Assembly (NCBI GenBank): GCA_965223505.1
Contig: CBDCWP010000013.1
Coordinates: 203,261 to 267,260, forward strand
Reading direction: 5' to 3'
Length of the DNA: 64,000 nucleotides
Source of the DNA: Planctomycetota bacterium
GTDB taxonomy: Bacteria; Planctomycetota; PLA2; JAEUHO01
Below the pieces are notes generated by a model, which saw only the letters and a program-made list of their open reading frames with translations, did not search any database and was not told the DNA's origin. The position numbers were made by a program, and so were the translations under genes. This document shows, piece after piece, positions 9,349 through 18,331 of this stretch; positions within the stretch are counted from its first letter, which is position 1; each line of letters opens with the position of its first letter.

Positions 9349-11000
9349 CTATCGGGCGCCTGGCCCGACATCTCGCTTGCGAATTTTAAACGCCTCAGCC
9401 AACCCCTGCAGCACGGCGGCGTCGCGGTCGTAGATGTCCGGGATAAAGGAGACCACGCCATCGCCATCCACCTGCGCCGTCCAATAGAGGATCAGAACTG
9501 GCAAAGGCTGTGGCAAAAACACAGTCTGCGTCTTCCCACTCGCGACGGTCTTCTGAATCGCGGCGGCGCTCCACGCCGCCTCGTCGTTAAGTAAGAATTC
9601 CGCGAATTTGAGTGGGATGCTGCACGCGGATGCAGCCGTGGCTAAAATTGCGCCGGGTTCTGCTAAACAACTCTCGACTCGGCGTATCGTGCAAAAACAC
9701 CGAGTGGGGATTCGGGAAGATAAATTTCACCTGACCCAAGGCATTGTTGGCGCCTGGCCGCTGGCGCAGAATATACGGGAAGTTGTTCCGGTTGTATTGC
9801 GCCCAGTTGAGCTGGCTCTGATCCATGACGTTGCCGGCGCGGTCGATGACATCGATCGATTGCGCCTGCAAATAGGTCCGGATCGCGTTTGACCTTGGGC
9901 AGCATCTCCTTGACCGTAATACTGCGTGGCGACGTCCAGGTTGGGTTAAAGACCAAGTAGGTCATATTGGCTTTAAAAACGGGCGTCTTATGGAAATTCG
10001 ACCCCACCACCGCCAGGGTCTCCCAGACTAGCGCGCCGTGCCGAATCAGATAGACTTTGAAGTCGGCAATGTTCACCACGACATACGTTTCCGGGAGCCC
10101 GTGCAAGACCCAACGGGTCCTTTCCAGATTGACCCGAAGTTGATCGATGCGCTGCGCCACGGGGGTATTCAGGGCGGCGAACGTGTCCGGGCCAACCACG
10201 CCGTCCACCTCTAGACGATGGCGCTGCTGGAAACGCTTGACGGCCGCTTCCAAGGCGTCGTCAAACACCGTCGAGGACGTCTCCATCCCGGCTGGCAGAT
10301 CGCCGGTGACGGCCAAACGTTGGCGCAGCAGCGCCGCGCGGTCGTCTGTCATCCCACGTTTCAAGGTTTCCCCCAAGGGAATGGGCCGCCAGCCGCCCTG
10401 GCTCTGAATGCCGCGATAGGCAGCCAAAACGTCCTTCAGGCGCGGGTAGTAATGATGCTGCGGCTTGAGCTTTTCGATGCCCTGATACACGCTTCCGGCA
10501 TCGAGCATCGCTTGCAACATGGCGGCCGGGTCGAGACGATTGATGTCATAGCTTAAATTCCAGTTGCTATCGAGCCGTTCCGGGTCGACTTTGCCAACCA
10601 GGAGATGATAGCCGAGCCGGATGATCGCATCGGTCTGCAACAAATCAAGGTCAGCAGTGTGTTGTCCATCCGGATTGGATTCGGCGCGCATGCGGTTGAG
10701 CGCAGCCAAGTGATAGTCCTCGGGATCAAGCCCATCCTGCTCACTCTGACGAATAGCGCGAAGCAGCTCGTCCACTGCAGTGGCGCTCCAGGCTGGCCTA
10801 AACTGGCGCTGCTCGTAAAAGGCAGGCAGGACGCGCTTCGAGGCAATTCGGGCGTTGCCAACGGTCAGCTCGCCAAATCGCCGGAGAGATTCGATCTGAA
10901 TTCGAATGCGATGTTGGGGCCTCTGGGTTTGCGCCCATGCCAGGCCCATGCTCAACACCAAGCCCAGCAGGCATAGCGCTAGGCGCTGCATGCCGTTCAT
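9349..11000 (-). pseudogene. L,D-transpeptidase YcbB/LdtD-like, split by two +1 frameshifts (probably sequencing errors)
   Basis: Signal peptide, PG-binding AVKRFQQRHRLEVDGVVGPDT, then YkuD motif LHDTP...SHGCIRV in a second frame and VLILYWTA...DIYDRD in a third, ending at TAG 9349; an extra C at ~9878 and ~9614. Confidence 0.85.
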
Positions 11001-12105: not shown

Positions 12106-12939
12106 TTAATTCGCTTCCCAGAGCGCCGCGGCATAGGGCACGCGCCGGCCCCACCACTCCGGCCCTTCTTGCACGTAGCGCCACTCGGGGTTCTGCTCTA
12201 CATCCCGCAGCGCCGCCATCACCGAGCGAAAAATGTCGGCATGGGCTTCGGCAAACTCGAAATATGGCGTAAAATCGTAGCTGTCCTGGCGCCCATACCC
12301 CCCCGGCGCATGCACATTGCGCCTGACGATATACGGCACGCCGCCGGCGCTGGCCAGCGCATGGCCTTTGGCGACCATGTTGTCCTGCGCATCGTAGCGG
12401 GGCAAAAAATAACTCTCCCGACGCATCCAGTCCATCGCCCACCAGGCCGCCGTCTTGTTCTGGGGCGTCACCACACCCAGCGGACAGACCGAGGCGGGCT
12501 GCGGCGCGAGGGCGGGGGCATAGGCAAACTGCGTCATCGCATGGCTGGTGTAGCTGCGGGGCCGCTGCTCGCCGGGCAGCGTCTCCACCGCGCCGCCGCG
12601 CGCTTCAATGAGCTGTTGCAGGTCTTTGATGTAGCGCAAAATCGGATCGAGGGCAGCGCATTCGAGCCGAATCAAGGCGCTCGCCTGCGACACGCCGGGG
12701 TGGGGGAGGTCGCGTTCCGAACTGAATTCCGGCGCGGCGCGCAGCAACTGAAAGCGGCCTCGTTCAAAGGCGCTGGGCGAGGCGTGCCCCGTTGTTTCAT
12801 GCATGTTTTCCATGCCGGCGCCGAGCGCATCGAGCCCTTGCGCGAGGGACGCATCGGCCTCGCTAGGCGCTAAAGAGACAAACACCGAATACTGATACCC
12901 GGTGACGTCGGTCGAAAGATTGAGATCAGCCGGTTGCAT
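12106..12939 (-). CDS. Chlorite-dismutase-family (heme-binding alpha/beta barrel) protein
   Basis: KTAAWWAMDWMRRE, GH, YDFTPYFEF, ALRD..PEWRYV resemble the Cld-family C-terminal domain; ATG 12939 behind AGGAG. Confidence 0.6.
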   Translation of the reverse strand: MQPADLNLSTDVTGYQYSVFVSLAPSEADASLAQGLDALGAGMENMHETTGHASPSAFERGRFQLLRAAPEFSSERDLPHPGVSQASALIRLECAALDPILRYIKDLQQLIEARGGAVETLPGEQRPRSYTSHAMTQFAYAPALAPQPASVCPLGVVTPQNKTAAWWAMDWMRRESYFLPRYDAQDNMVAKGHALASAGGVPYIVRRNVHAPGGYGRQDSYDFTPYFEFAEAHADIFRSVMAALRDVEQNPEWRYVQEGPEWWGRRVPYAAALWEAN

Positions 12940-12995
12940 CGTCAACTCCTAATTAACTTGCCCAAAGTTAGCCCAAGTGCAGCTAACCAAGCCTG

Positions 12996-13301
12996 TCATT
13001 CGATAATTTCCACGCTTGCCACTCGCTTGGCGCCCTCGTATAAATCAAATGCGCAACCCGGTTGCAATCGGTCTGCGGGAGCCGTATCCATCAGAAACTG
13101 AGCCCGCGCAATGGAGGGATTGCCTTGCTTTGCCGGAGGTTCTTCAAATTCCAAAACGATACTCCACGCCTCTTCCGACCACCGCTCGGCGTCCTCTTTG
13201 AAGCATGAGACCGTGGCGTATCGTTTGCCAGCGGGCAAAGTCATGCGACCGCCTTTTTCGGGCGGCACCCAATGTATCTTGGCGCGTACGGATTTCTTCA
13301 T
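12996..13301 (-). CDS. Stand-alone EF-Tu domain III-like protein; putative antitoxin/immunity
   Basis: AKIHWVPPEKGGRMTL and LQPGCAFDLYEGAKRVASVEI parallel EF-Tu EVYILSKDEGGRHTP and DGLRFAIREGGRTVGAGVV; ATGA-coupled to the upstream gene. Confidence 0.65.
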   Translation of the reverse strand: MKKSVRAKIHWVPPEKGGRMTLPAGKRYATVSCFKEDAERWSEEAWSIVLEFEEPPAKQGNPSIARAQFLMDTAPADRLQPGCAFDLYEGAKRVASVEIIE

Positions 13302-13603
13302 CGTTCATACTGCCTAATCGTTGCGGTCTCTAATTGCGACAAATTGGCGTATCGAGCCGGGCTAATACCATCAAGCCGCATCCAACGTATCAGTTCGTCA
13401 GCGACAGCAGCCGTCAGTTCAACCTCGATAATGCGATATTGCCCTGCGCCTTCCAATGCCTCTCCCCATGCCTTGGCGTGCTCGGGATGTTCCGCGAAAA
13501 ACTTGCCCTCTAGAGCATAAGGGGCCATCGCAAATTTGCCCGTTCTCAAAATTTGTTGAAATTCCGCTTCGCTGACCGCTCGGTAGAGCGTCACCATCTC
13601 CAT
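13298..13603 (-). CDS. Putative ADP-ribosyltransferase-fold toxin (Rhs C-terminal-like)
   Basis: TLYRAVSEAEFQQILRTG (beta1 Arg plus helix), GKFFA, YRIIEVEL; extended -10 TGGTATAGT at 13655-13663. Confidence 0.55.
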   Translation of the reverse strand: MEMVTLYRAVSEAEFQQILRTGKFAMAPYALEGKFFAEHPEHAKAWGEALEGAGQYRIIEVELTAAVADELIRWMRLDGISPARYANLSQLETATIRQYER

Positions 13604-13786
13604 GCAAACGCCGCCATTCGTTACACGCGTCCTGACCATGCCCCAACCATTTCTACTATACCATAATCCGCCCTCGTCAACCGAGGCGCATCAGGAGTGG
13701 ACAACGGCGTCAAACAGTGCGACACTAAGCGCCGTATCACCCAATGGACGCCGAATCGACAACCCCAAACCCCGTAGGAGAGGCTC

Positions 13787-14701
13787 ATGAAGCTCGTATT
13801 TTTCGATGATTTCAAGCTCGGCGTGCTCAACGGCGATCAAGTCGTTGACATTTCCAGCGTCGTGCAAGACGTCCCGCATACCGAGCCCGGCAATTTGATC
13901 AGCGGGCTCATCGCCCAATTCGACAACTACCGCGGCCGCATCGAGAGCGCCGCGCAGGGGCAGGGCAAGCCGCTGAGCGAAGTCCGCCTGCGCTCGCCTT
14001 TGCCCAAGCCCAATAACATCGTGTGCATGGCGGTCAACTACATGGAAGACGGCACGCGGGACGCGCCGGCCCCCATCAATGCGTTTCAAAAATCGCCCAA
14101 TTGCGTCATTGGCAACGGCGACACCATGGTGCTGCCCGACATGCCGGCCACCATTTTCGAGGGCGAAGCGGAACTGGCCCTGGTCATTGGCAAGTACGCC
14201 GCCAACGTCAGCGAAGCCGATGCGATGAGCTACATCTTCGGTTACCTCAACTTCATCGATGGCTCGGCGCGCGGCGTGCCGGCGTTCTACCAGATGAAGT
14301 CGCGCGACACCTTCGCCCCCATGGGGCCGTATCTGGTCACCGCCGACGAGATCGCCGACCCGCAAAAGCTGCAGGTGAAACTCTGGGTCAATGGCGAGAT
14401 GAAGCAGAATTACAACACCGACGACATGGCCCACAAGATTCCGCGGACGATTTCGTGGATCAGCTCCATTCATCCCCTGGAGCCGGGCGACGTGATCGCC
14501 ACGGGCACCAACCACCGGGGTCTCAGCGCCTTCATGGACGGCGATCGCATCGAGCTGGAAACGGAAGGATTGGGTCGCCTGAGCATTTACGTTAAAGACG
14601 ACTTGAAACGCAAGTGGTCGCGCGAGACGCGCCTGGATCGGCAGGAAAAGGGTCTGGACGGCACCACGCCGCAGATCGAGGGCAAGTACAAACCCGCCTA
14701 G
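13787..14701 (+). CDS. Fumarylacetoacetate hydrolase family protein
   Basis: IVCMAVNY, FEGEAELALVIG, KSRDTFAPMGP, LEPGDVIATGT. Confidence 0.92.
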   Translation: MKLVFFDDFKLGVLNGDQVVDISSVVQDVPHTEPGNLISGLIAQFDNYRGRIESAAQGQGKPLSEVRLRSPLPKPNNIVCMAVNYMEDGTRDAPAPINAFQKSPNCVIGNGDTMVLPDMPATIFEGEAELALVIGKYAANVSEADAMSYIFGYLNFIDGSARGVPAFYQMKSRDTFAPMGPYLVTADEIADPQKLQVKLWVNGEMKQNYNTDDMAHKIPRTISWISSIHPLEPGDVIATGTNHRGLSAFMDGDRIELETEGLGRLSIYVKDDLKRKWSRETRLDRQEKGLDGTTPQIEGKYKPA

Positions 14702-17686: not shown

Positions 17687-18070
17687 CTATGACGGGGACT
17701 CTGACCATTCCTGCTGAGGGCCGTTGAGCACCATGCTCACATGGTTGAGAATATCTCGTCCTAATATGCCTCGTTCTGTGTCAATTAAGAGGTAGCGGCC
17801 TCGGAAAACGCGCCTCAAAAAGATCATGTCTAGGATCACGATCGATGCTGTGCTCCGAGTGCCGTCGAAGCCCATCAGTTCGTATCCCTGGTCCCTGAGT
17901 GGAGAAACGCCAAGCTGTTCCACTATGGCTCTAGGGAGTAGCGTCACATCCGAACCGGTATCCAGCAGCAACGCGACATTGGAGACCGTTTTGCTAGTCT
18001 GCGGGTCGCGTAGCGTGACATGAGCAACTGGCGCTGGCGGGTCAAAGCGAGAAGCATCATAACTGGGCAT
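17687..18070 (-). CDS. Retropepsin-like (clan AA) aspartyl protease
   Basis: PPAPV, LLDTGSDVT, ILGRDILN; start ATG 18070. Confidence 0.82.
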   Translation of the reverse strand: MPSYDASRFDPPAPVAHVTLRDPQTSKTVSNVALLLDTGSDVTLLPRAIVEQLGVSPLRDQGYELMGFDGTRSTASIVILDMIFLRRVFRGRYLLIDTERGILGRDILNHVSMVLNGPQQEWSESPS

Positions 18071-18272
18071 CAGGAGCCGCTTCAATGATCTCCTTGACAA
18101 AATCAGCAGCCTGCTCCGGGTACACCAAGTGTGGACTATAGATAACAGCTGGCGACGCCATTTCAACATCGGGAATCACAACGTAGACCCTGGCGTTTTC
18201 GGGCAGCTTGATGTTATTGGCAAGTCGAATCTGGCCATTTTCGACAACGCCCTCGTACGTTGCGATTGTCAT
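18057..18272 (-). CDS. DUF104/AF2212-like small putative antitoxin
   Basis: MTIATYEGVVENGQIRLANNIKLPENARVYVVI; overlaps the protease start. Confidence 0.7.
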   Translation of the reverse strand: MTIATYEGVVENGQIRLANNIKLPENARVYVVIPDVEMASPAVIYSPHLVYPEQAADFVKEIIEAAPDAQL

Positions 18273-18331
18273 TTTGCATCTCCCGATTTCAATCATGGTG
18301 CGTGGTTTATCTCAAGCGCGACAAAACCTCA

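Follow-up and report, generated by a model that had tools for sequence, protein, structure and literature searches.

In a 64,000-nucleotide (nt) stretch of a Planctomycetota genome (GenBank assembly GCA_965223505.1, contig CBDCWP010000013.1, positions 203,261 to 267,260; hereafter the window), two short genes on the reverse strand probably constitute a free-standing, co-translated toxin-immunity pair descended from an Rhs-type toxin, namely from its C-terminal tip with the accompanying immunity cassette; in this pair the toxin would use nicotinamide adenine dinucleotide (NAD) and the partner would cap it 1:1. A first-pass annotation of this DNA had read the upstream gene as an ADP-ribosyltransferase (ART) toxin and the downstream gene as a mimic of domain III of the elongation factor EF-Tu, the two having been domesticated from a polymorphic-toxin module and the partner neutralizing the toxin by resembling its target. 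The folds and the origin proposed there are in agreement with our analyses, and the target mimicry is treated here as one of several rival explanations. Our reading is carried by the folds of the two proteins, the architecture of the toxin family, the linkage of the two genes and the purifying selection acting on them, all of which were established by computation.

Folds of the two proteins and the predicted complex

All structures obtained for the pair in this analysis are predictions. The AlphaFold2 model of the upstream protein, built from 33 relatives, has a predicted local distance difference test (pLDDT) value of 88.2 and contains six strands and helices in the order expected for an ART, a fold defined by a split beta-sheet of strand order 4-5-2 / 1-3-6. 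When the model was compared with the Protein Data Bank (PDB) by Foldseek, the first match was TreTu (7zhl_A, E-value 4.4e-3, probability 1.00), followed by ParT, KptA/Tpt1, RES toxins, exotoxin A, diphtheria toxin and cholera toxin. Re-alignment gave Z-scores of 9.4 for diphtheria toxin, 8.9 for KptA, 8.4 for RhsP2, 7.9 for ParT and 7.4-7.6 for TreTu, the latter with a root-mean-square deviation (rmsd) of 2.6-2.7 Å over 85-87 residues and 18% identity. A wide structural search of 48,161 representative chains, which is independent of Foldseek, returned 49 chains with a Z-score of at least 5, diphtheria toxin being the best (Z 9.2), and about 43 of the 50 listed rows were ART, PARP, Tpt1/KptA or ART-fold NADase entries by their titles; TreTu was found there at Z 7.4 with the lowest rmsd (2.6 Å, 87 residues, 18% identity). 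The ART assignment is made because ART folds consistently fill the match lists of both searches, and not because of any single score. On these models the upstream protein is likely a minimal (approximately 100 amino acids, aa) ART-fold enzyme.

Over 148 sequences of the domain, residues L6, R8, E14, G33, K34, F36, A37, A43, W46 and G47 are near-invariant, as are L77, D78, I80, G81, P82 and A83 in the C-terminal part. R8, part of the first predicted strand, is kept in 143 of the 148 sequences; in the strand-4/5 region, D78 is present in 146 and W74 in 82.

The published toxin to which these features are best compared is TreTu, the C-terminal ART toxin of a Salmonella main Rhs protein. TreTu ADP-ribosylates D21 in the G domain of EF-Tu and docks on helix D of this factor, not on domain III; R6 (strand 1), E12 (helix 1), S25 (next loop), H31, F41 and W68 are needed, and R6-S25-E12 is proposed as an alternative triad (PMC9825190). 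TreTu is a small (113 aa) ART fold at an Rhs tip, as in the present toxin family. It heads the Foldseek list, and none of the other matches has a lower rmsd or exceeds its 18% identity. Both have the same Arg-x5-Glu spacing (R6/E12 in TreTu, R8/E14 here) and a Ser in the loop between helix 1 and strand 2 (S25 in TreTu, S30 in 125 of the 148 sequences of the present family, Ala30 in the window toxin). More broadly, S30, K34, W46 and W74 of the family recall the TreTu site pattern at roughly shifted positions, a comparison of positions and not a residue-level alignment, and the R/E/S parallel between the two is taken as a lead only. In contrast, sequence homology between TreTu and the present toxin is not detectable, the two TreTu entries (7ZHL, 7ZHM) being absent among the matches of the toxin profiles to all PDB sequences at E <= 10, the long C-terminal helix by which TreTu docks on EF-Tu is not predicted here, H31 and W68 of TreTu have no assigned counterparts, and the window toxin is not fused to an Rhs protein.

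The match lists also bear on a different reading of the toxin, namely a glycohydrolase or phosphorylase of the RES, MbcT, Tne2 or Tse6 kind that would degrade NAD+ and kill by its depletion, the barrel being simply an inhibitor; we regard this as unlikely. RES toxins (9r35, 6gw6 and 8gug, Z 7.4-7.5), Tne2 (6.2) and MbcT (5.1) are among the fold matches, the conserved residues come in the order Arg, Glu, Ser (R8, E14, S30), which we take to match the name of RES, and the domain is very small, with few loops for target recognition. The NADase Tse6 is moreover known to bind EF-Tu, according to the title of PDB entry 4zv4 and to bioRxiv 10.1101/2025.10.28.685041. On the other side, TreTu is equally small and shows the same R/E/S arrangement as its alternative triad, yet it is a true transferase (PMC9825190), while RhsP2, KptA and diphtheria toxin reach equal or higher fold scores than the NADases, and the fold alone does not decide between both activities. 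Since the activity is read from the fold alone, transferase and NADase are not separable, and from the models we lean slightly towards a transferase, a NADase appearing rather improbable.

The model of the downstream protein (pLDDT 88.0) is a single barrel for which all top Foldseek matches are EF-Tu (best E 2.6e-4, template modelling (TM) score 0.73, rmsd 2.2 Å), and no DNA-binding fold is found among the structural matches listed. Re-alignment places its residues 1-101 onto approximately residues 300-391 of EF-Tu, which is domain III, with 89 residues aligned at 17-21% identity; against EF-Tu residues 301-391 the Z-score is 12.2 with an rmsd of 2.2 Å, and the 50 listed rows out of 50 are EF-Tu. 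In the wide search, bacterial EF-Tu comes first (Z 11.6-11.9), ahead of domain III of other translational GTPases (GTPBP1 10.2, Hbs1 9.8, aEF1A 9.6, eRF3 9.1), of CysN (8.5) and of SelB and eIF2-gamma (7.7-7.8), and unrelated barrels score at most 6.9.

At the sequence level the signals are weak and concordant. The two domain III signatures that the first-pass annotation had pointed out are found at residues 15-19 (E.GGR) and 85-94 (F.LYEG...V), and in the profile alignment they face the EGGR and F.I/L.EG..V (F.IREGG.TV) motifs of EF-Tu, at homologous positions of the same barrel. With hhalign, for which the target was EF-Tu domain III of this genome together with 17 relatives, the narrow immunity alignment gave an E-value of 0.023 over 17 aligned columns only, the 26-member alignment gave 4.7e-4 (probability 32%, 89 columns, full length) and the cyanobacterial branch of the immunity family gave 5.1e-5 (probability 67%, 29% identity, full length). 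The two best PDB matches of the hidden Markov model of that branch are EF-Tu, at the non-significant E-values of 0.65 and 0.78, and over the PDB sequences as a whole the HMMER profiles of the immunity protein yielded nothing significant, EF-Tu appearing at E 0.65-1.2. The Pfam model GTP_EFTU_D3 (PF03143) does not match the window protein at E <= 1 and touches one of 26 family members, at E 0.081, under the Pfam gathering threshold. Four of 85 listed relatives bear the JGI label 'translation elongation factor EF-Tu-like GTPase'; these (P0199, P0200, P0205 and P0206) are cyanobacterial homologues of 110-119 aa without a GTPase domain. Differences from EF-Tu are that the immunity protein stands alone, without the GTPase domain or domain II and below Pfam detection, that its gene follows a toxin domain and is not located in a translation operon, and that it carries a five-residue insertion with the family motif W..EAWS in the segment of residues 41-47. 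GGR is missing in divergent members (locus L032, and locus L041 with its relatives). Taken together, the fold and these sequence signals make descent of the immunity protein from domain III of bacterial EF-Tu probable.

When the two proteins were modelled together, the complex score was 0.83 (0.83, 0.82 and 0.85 in the separate runs) against 0.00 for the best of three controls; the runs gave 59-60 contacts, of which at least 98% were shared between runs, and a partner pLDDT of 90. Of 157 solved complexes, 116 score at least as high as the mark used here, compared with 2 of 215 mismatched pairs, a calibration that is rough since custom alignments were used. This prediction, which the first-pass annotation had suggested making, supports the view that toxin and immunity protein bind each other. 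The predicted interface comprises residues 28-33 (the loop before strand 2), 49-50, 72-80 and 85 of the toxin and residues 19-21, 23-25, 27, 29-31, 41-47, 55, 57, 70-71, 73-74 and 89-92 of the partner, which takes in the Arg of E.GGR, the Glu-Gly of YEG and the W..EAWS segment. The tightest predicted contacts run between toxin 74-78 and partner 41-47, in register like an added strand, and the partner is placed over the putative NAD cleft of the toxin. Conservation of the toxin interface (0.67) exceeds that of the rest of the domain (0.55, permutation p ~0.035). Such an arrangement recalls the TriTu immunity protein, which lies over the concave sheet of TreTu and brings order to strand 4 of that toxin (PMC9825190): in both cases the immunity gene lies directly downstream of the toxin, the immunity protein forms a lid over the cleft (predicted for the present partner), and the ordering of TreTu strand 4 would have its counterpart in the predicted pairing with toxin 74-78. 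The lids themselves differ, TriTu being a flat five-stranded sheet with two helices, in contrast to the EF-Tu-like barrel of the present partner.

The likeness to EF-Tu and the placement of the barrel bear on a rival explanation by target mimicry, in which the toxin would dock on domain III of EF-Tu and ADP-ribosylate the factor, the immunity protein being an exapted copy of the domain that titrates the toxin. We consider this explanation doubtful. Through the profile alignment of the 26 members, the partner interface maps to RHTPFF.KGYRPQ and EGGR of EF-Tu; under mimicry, the toxin might dock on the domain III face that carries EGGR...YRPQ and REGG before ADP-ribosylating EF-Tu, and the same face with the added W..EAWS clamp might hold the toxin with its cleft shut, each of these details being, in our judgement, unlikely. 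In EF-Tu bound to GTP this face presumably packs on the G domain, and the open GDP form would leave it exposed; we take the face to carry the kirromycin-resistance positions 316, 329, 375 and 378. Doc modifies EF-Tu at Thr382, a residue of the REGGRT motif in domain III. In agreement with mimicry, the partner resembles domain III of bacterial EF-Tu (Z 11.6-11.9) more than it does that of other translational GTPases (at most 10.2), its profiles match the EF-Tu domain over the full length (E 4.7e-4 and 5.1e-5), the top two, non-significant PDB matches of the cyanobacterial branch are EF-Tu, as are the JGI names of the four relatives, and EF-Tu-type motifs lie inside the predicted interface (R19-T21 of E.GGR, E89-K92 of YEG). 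EF-Tu is also a known toxin target (TreTu; Doc, by phosphorylation) and a toxin helper, Tse6, Rhs2CT and CdiA-CT toxins binding it (PMC9825190; bioRxiv 10.1101/2025.10.28.685041). The connection between the present toxin and EF-Tu is nevertheless conjectural, and TreTu acts on the G domain and TriTu is not EF-Tu-like (PMC9825190). Furthermore, the tightest predicted contacts involve residues 41-47, which are a family-specific insertion relative to EF-Tu, GGR is lost in several members, the Gly-rich motifs may persist for the fold alone, and GTP_EFTU_D3 reaches a single member of 26. If true, mimicry would provide the first immunity protein fashioned out of part of the very essential target that its toxin attacks, and a new EF-Tu-directed ART family across many phyla.

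Toxin family and linkage to the immunity gene

A free-standing pair of Rhs origin, which is the reading that we favour, is in agreement with the distribution of the toxin domain. Its profile retrieved 891 representatives (clusters at 50% identity) at E <= 1e-3 and 462 at E <= 1e-10 from 1.84 billion proteins. In 138 of the best 147 members the domain ends at most 12 residues from the C-terminus; the length exceeds 130 aa in 122 of these 147 proteins and 700 aa in 14. Among 30 members scanned with Pfam, RHS_repeat was found in 18, which are all 18 of the members of at least 467 aa, some of them also with SpvB, TcdB or FG-GAP; the other results were PT-HINT (1), a weak PT-TG (1), laminin-G (1) and no match (9), and in none of the 30 does a Pfam model span the tip itself. 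The nine without a match are mid-sized, and many of them may represent truncated gene calls. Because of its C-terminal position, the RHS repeats and the absence of a Pfam model on the tip, the domain is regarded as an unnamed C-terminal tip of polymorphic toxins. The window toxin is unfused, and it is a stand-alone relative of these tips, not itself a polymorphic toxin.

To follow the partner gene, the toxin alignment was scanned against one genome per species, which gave 21 loci from Entotheonella-like bacteria, Myxococcota, Acidobacteriota, Gammaproteobacteria, Gemmatimonadota, Chloroflexota, Deinococcus, Clostridia, Armatimonadota and cyanobacteria. In 18 of the 21, the toxin domain is directly followed by an open reading frame (ORF) that matches the immunity profile (hmmsearch, E < 1e-3), and hhalign adds L039 (E 1.6e-20) and L032 (E 3.2e-7), for a total of 20 of 21. 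The exception is L038, where the toxin match extends only through residue 54 and is followed by an unrelated 150-aa ORF. The conserved co-occurrence that the earlier annotation had named as a check is therefore present, and the linkage pattern is that expected of a cognate toxin-immunity pair. Some of the linked toxins are Rhs-sized (1245 aa in L027; more than 1430 aa with an open 5' end in L028, L031 and L032). At L037 (2665-3217, Herpetosiphonaceae) the toxin is broken over two frames and accompanied by an intact immunity gene and an upstream SUFU-type immunity gene, so that the locus looks like an immunity-gene island, and L033 carries an extra copy of the immunity gene.

Stand-alone pairs occur in several other contexts. 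In two Armatimonadota genomes the pair lies between fabH and fabD in a plsX-fabH-fabD-fabG operon (L039, 3995-4671; L041, 3971-4716), and an operon for fatty-acid synthesis is an odd, conserved site for a toxin module. In three Pseudanabaena genomes it follows an SIS-domain gene and DUF3067. In the Entotheonellaceae locus L023 (925-3431) it is located just 3' of two genes, one for an AAA_21/AAA_15 ATPase of 567 aa and one whose 269-aa product has no Pfam match, an arrangement that resembles ATPase-nuclease defence pairs.

Relatives on mobile elements were also sought. The toxin gave no tblastn match in plasmids or phages, the immunity protein had no phage relative, the sole hits being chance-level ones (E 0.3-0.9) to a phage nicotinamide phosphoribosyltransferase, and scans of viral contigs with the toxin and immunity profiles returned zero relatives. 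By structure, the best viral match of the immunity model is the BFVD entry A0A6J5RG77, a 91-aa protein of an uncultured tailed phage with the same barrel (E 1.1e-4, TM 0.67/0.73, 26% identity); searches of the sequence collections used here did not turn up the DNA encoding it. If phages carry a copy of the immunity barrel, it could serve them as a counter-measure.

Locus, history and selection

The module and the elements around it are located in the window as follows.

12996..13301, minus strand: immunity (antitoxin-like) gene, 101 aa, protein beginning MKKSVRAKIHWVPPEKGGR, EF-Tu domain III-like beta-barrel
13298..13603, minus strand: toxin gene, 101 aa, protein beginning MEMVTLYRAVSE, stop codon TGA at 13298-13300, predicted minimal ART fold
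13298-13301, minus strand: ATGA overlap of 4 nt, in which the toxin stop codon shares letters with the immunity start codon
13663-13655, minus strand: extended -10-like element TGGTATAGT (TGn-TATAGT), approximately 50 nt 5' of the toxin start, consensus match only
13675..13680, minus strand: -35-like TTGACG, spaced only 14 nt from the -10-like element
12750..13950, no strand: patch of low guanine-cytosine (GC) content (0.53-0.56) that contains the module, with flanks at 0.60-0.69 (composition profile)

The two ORFs of about 101 aa joined by ATGA, the extended -10 of their own and the lack of an Rhs carrier, all claimed in the first-pass annotation, could be read again at these positions. As mechanically called, the toxin ORF spans 13298..13639 (113 aa); since nearly all of the 33 relatives of the toxin are about 101 aa long and begin with ME[TM]VTLYR, the start was placed at the ATG at 13603, which makes LYRAVSEAEFQQILRTG residues 6-22 of the upstream protein. 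The ATGA overlap suggests translational coupling of the two genes. A promoter scan for two hexamers reported zero sites within 12700-14000, and for this reason TGGTATAGT and TTGACG are counted as a consensus match only. Neither protein had a match in Pfam, NCBIfam or PADLOC (at E <= 1 for PADLOC and for the downstream protein in Pfam).

The module is separated by 183 nt of intergenic DNA from a divergent FAA-hydrolase gene, and on the other flank lie a gene for a 279-aa protein without a Pfam match and then an aldo/keto reductase gene. It includes no carrier domain, the RHS-repeat ORFs of the genome being found on other contigs (C42, C5 and C34), two of them with 2001 and 2009 aa. No Rfam family was found, the window contains no tRNA, and flanking repeats resembling an insertion scar were not detected.

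Each gene is single-copy in the 5.15-Mb assembly. When 39 further genomes of the order, of which 16 are at least 90% complete, were searched with the immunity profile, no copy was detected. A contig of Candidatus Entotheonella palauensis has counterparts of the FAA hydrolase, the reductase and the module in a rearranged order, at identities of 86%, 82% and 77-80%, respectively. There, at 1742-1819 of locus L021, a 26-aa remnant of the immunity gene (62% identity) lies between the FAA-hydrolase and reductase genes and occupies the position that the module has in the window, while a complete pair follows the reductase on the same contig. From the shared neighbours, the module and this remnant we conclude that the pair predates the split of both organisms. 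Among four free-standing copies, the ratio of nonsynonymous to synonymous substitution rates (dN/dS) lies at 0.12-0.14 in the toxin gene and at 0.07-0.11 in its partner, with some dS values saturated; these low ratios indicate purifying selection, and therefore that both genes are maintained as proteins.

These data also bear on the possibility that the module is a silent orphan cassette stored for recombination into the Rhs genes of the genome. The genome does possess large RHS-repeat ORFs on other contigs, and orphan tip-and-immunity cassettes are known in Rhs loci (PMC3482391). Storage appears very improbable to us all the same: the ORF has a Met of its own just where the domain begins, without Rhs-core homology upstream, module and Rhs genes are on different contigs, the pair is under purifying selection, and the same stand-alone form occurs in unrelated housekeeping contexts of other phyla.

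Elsewhere in the window, an L,D-transpeptidase gene (9587-11000, minus strand) looks broken, a 445-aa ORF matching YkuD positions 2-75 of 146 and the catalytic HGCIRV motif standing in another frame (ORF 9587-9871), which reflects a frameshift or an assembly error. A second small two-gene cassette of low GC content (0.53-0.56) is found at 17687-18296 (minus strand), where a 79-aa ORF overlaps a 160-aa ORF that has weak matches to retropepsin-type aspartyl proteases (E 3e-5, under the Pfam cut-off).

Proposed mechanism and relation to known systems

Taken together, these data lead us to infer the enzyme activity, the neutralization and the cellular role of the pair as follows. (i) The toxin would use NAD+, with Arg8 (strand 1), Glu14 (helix 1) and Asp78 (strand-4/5 region) as candidate site residues. 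(ii) The EF-Tu-derived barrel would bind it 1:1, adding a strand against toxin 74-78, covering the loop between helix 1 and strand 2 (28-33) and closing the putative NAD cleft, as TriTu does on TreTu. (iii) The pair would act within its own cell like a type II toxin-antitoxin (TA) module, a role proposed because it comes without any delivery domain; as a by-product, it could protect the cell from incoming Rhs toxins bearing the same tip. As to the target, the chances that it is a protein or RNA of the translation apparatus seem evenly balanced, and EF-Tu itself would be a rather unlikely choice.

Several observations weigh against this proposal. Foldseek yields nothing at E <= 0.001 for the toxin against the PDB, its Z-scores of 7-9 are middling by the tool's own note, and the HMMER toxin profiles retrieved no meaningful ART among the PDB sequences at E <= 10, the best match being 9qe9 at 0.67. 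The canonical catalytic Glu of strand 5 has no assignment in the model, in which D78 is a candidate only. Conservation of the immunity interface (0.58) does not differ significantly from that of the rest of the protein (0.53, p ~0.17). The window toxin has Ser81 (codon at 13361-13363, minus strand) where 144 of the 148 sequences have Gly, in the motif LDGIGPA, and none of its 33 close relatives shares this change; at position 30 its residue is Ala, in contrast to the Ser of 125 of the 148, and judging from these substitutions this copy may be attenuated. Finally, the toxicity, the NAD use and the binding of the pair are themselves predicted only.

The substitution at position 81 is also consistent with an immunity-first cassette, that is, a pair kept mainly for protection from the Rhs toxins of neighbours, the local toxin being weak or idle. 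Under this explanation, immunity genes should outlive toxins, and such traces do exist, with the broken toxin of L037, the extra immunity copy of L033 and the immunity remnant of L021. We nonetheless find it improbable, since the dN/dS of the toxin is as low as that of the immunity gene, close relatives keep the same start and the length of 101 aa, and the ATGA coupling and the promoter-like element place the toxin first in the operon.

The free-standing toxin-immunity pair that we favour can also be compared with the ART-fold TA systems ParT-ParS, RES-Xre, MbcT-MbcA and DarT-DarG, all of which are among the fold matches of the toxin. In common with them, it consists of two small, presumably co-transcribed genes with an ART-fold toxin, a presumed action in its own cell and a neutralization, here predicted, by a protein partner. 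It differs from them by its toxin-first order, by a partner without a DNA-binding or hydrolase domain and with a fold unrelated to those of their antitoxins, and by a toxin family found mostly at the tip of secreted Rhs toxins. On the models, the pair would work like TreTu-TriTu and like the ART-fold TA pairs, while by sequence it is a member of none of them. Among the toxins that modify or bind EF-Tu, none of Doc, Tse6, Rhs2CT and CdiA-CT is reported with an EF-Tu-like immunity protein or antitoxin. A literature search found no immunity protein or antitoxin described as EF-Tu-like, and the terms 'EF-Tu' and 'elongation factor' are absent from the 300,000 characters searched of the 2012 polymorphic-toxin catalogue (PMC3482391).

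The two protein families, a widespread ART-fold Rhs tip and its cognate immunity family, are unnamed in the curated libraries searched. The immunity proteins, which stand alone, appear to be descended from EF-Tu domain III, an unusual origin for such proteins. If this likeness does reflect the target, immunity by target mimicry could be put to the test in this pair, and EF-Tu would be hit in a new way. Regardless of the target, the module represents a secreted-toxin cassette that has been turned into a chromosomal two-gene module in several phyla.

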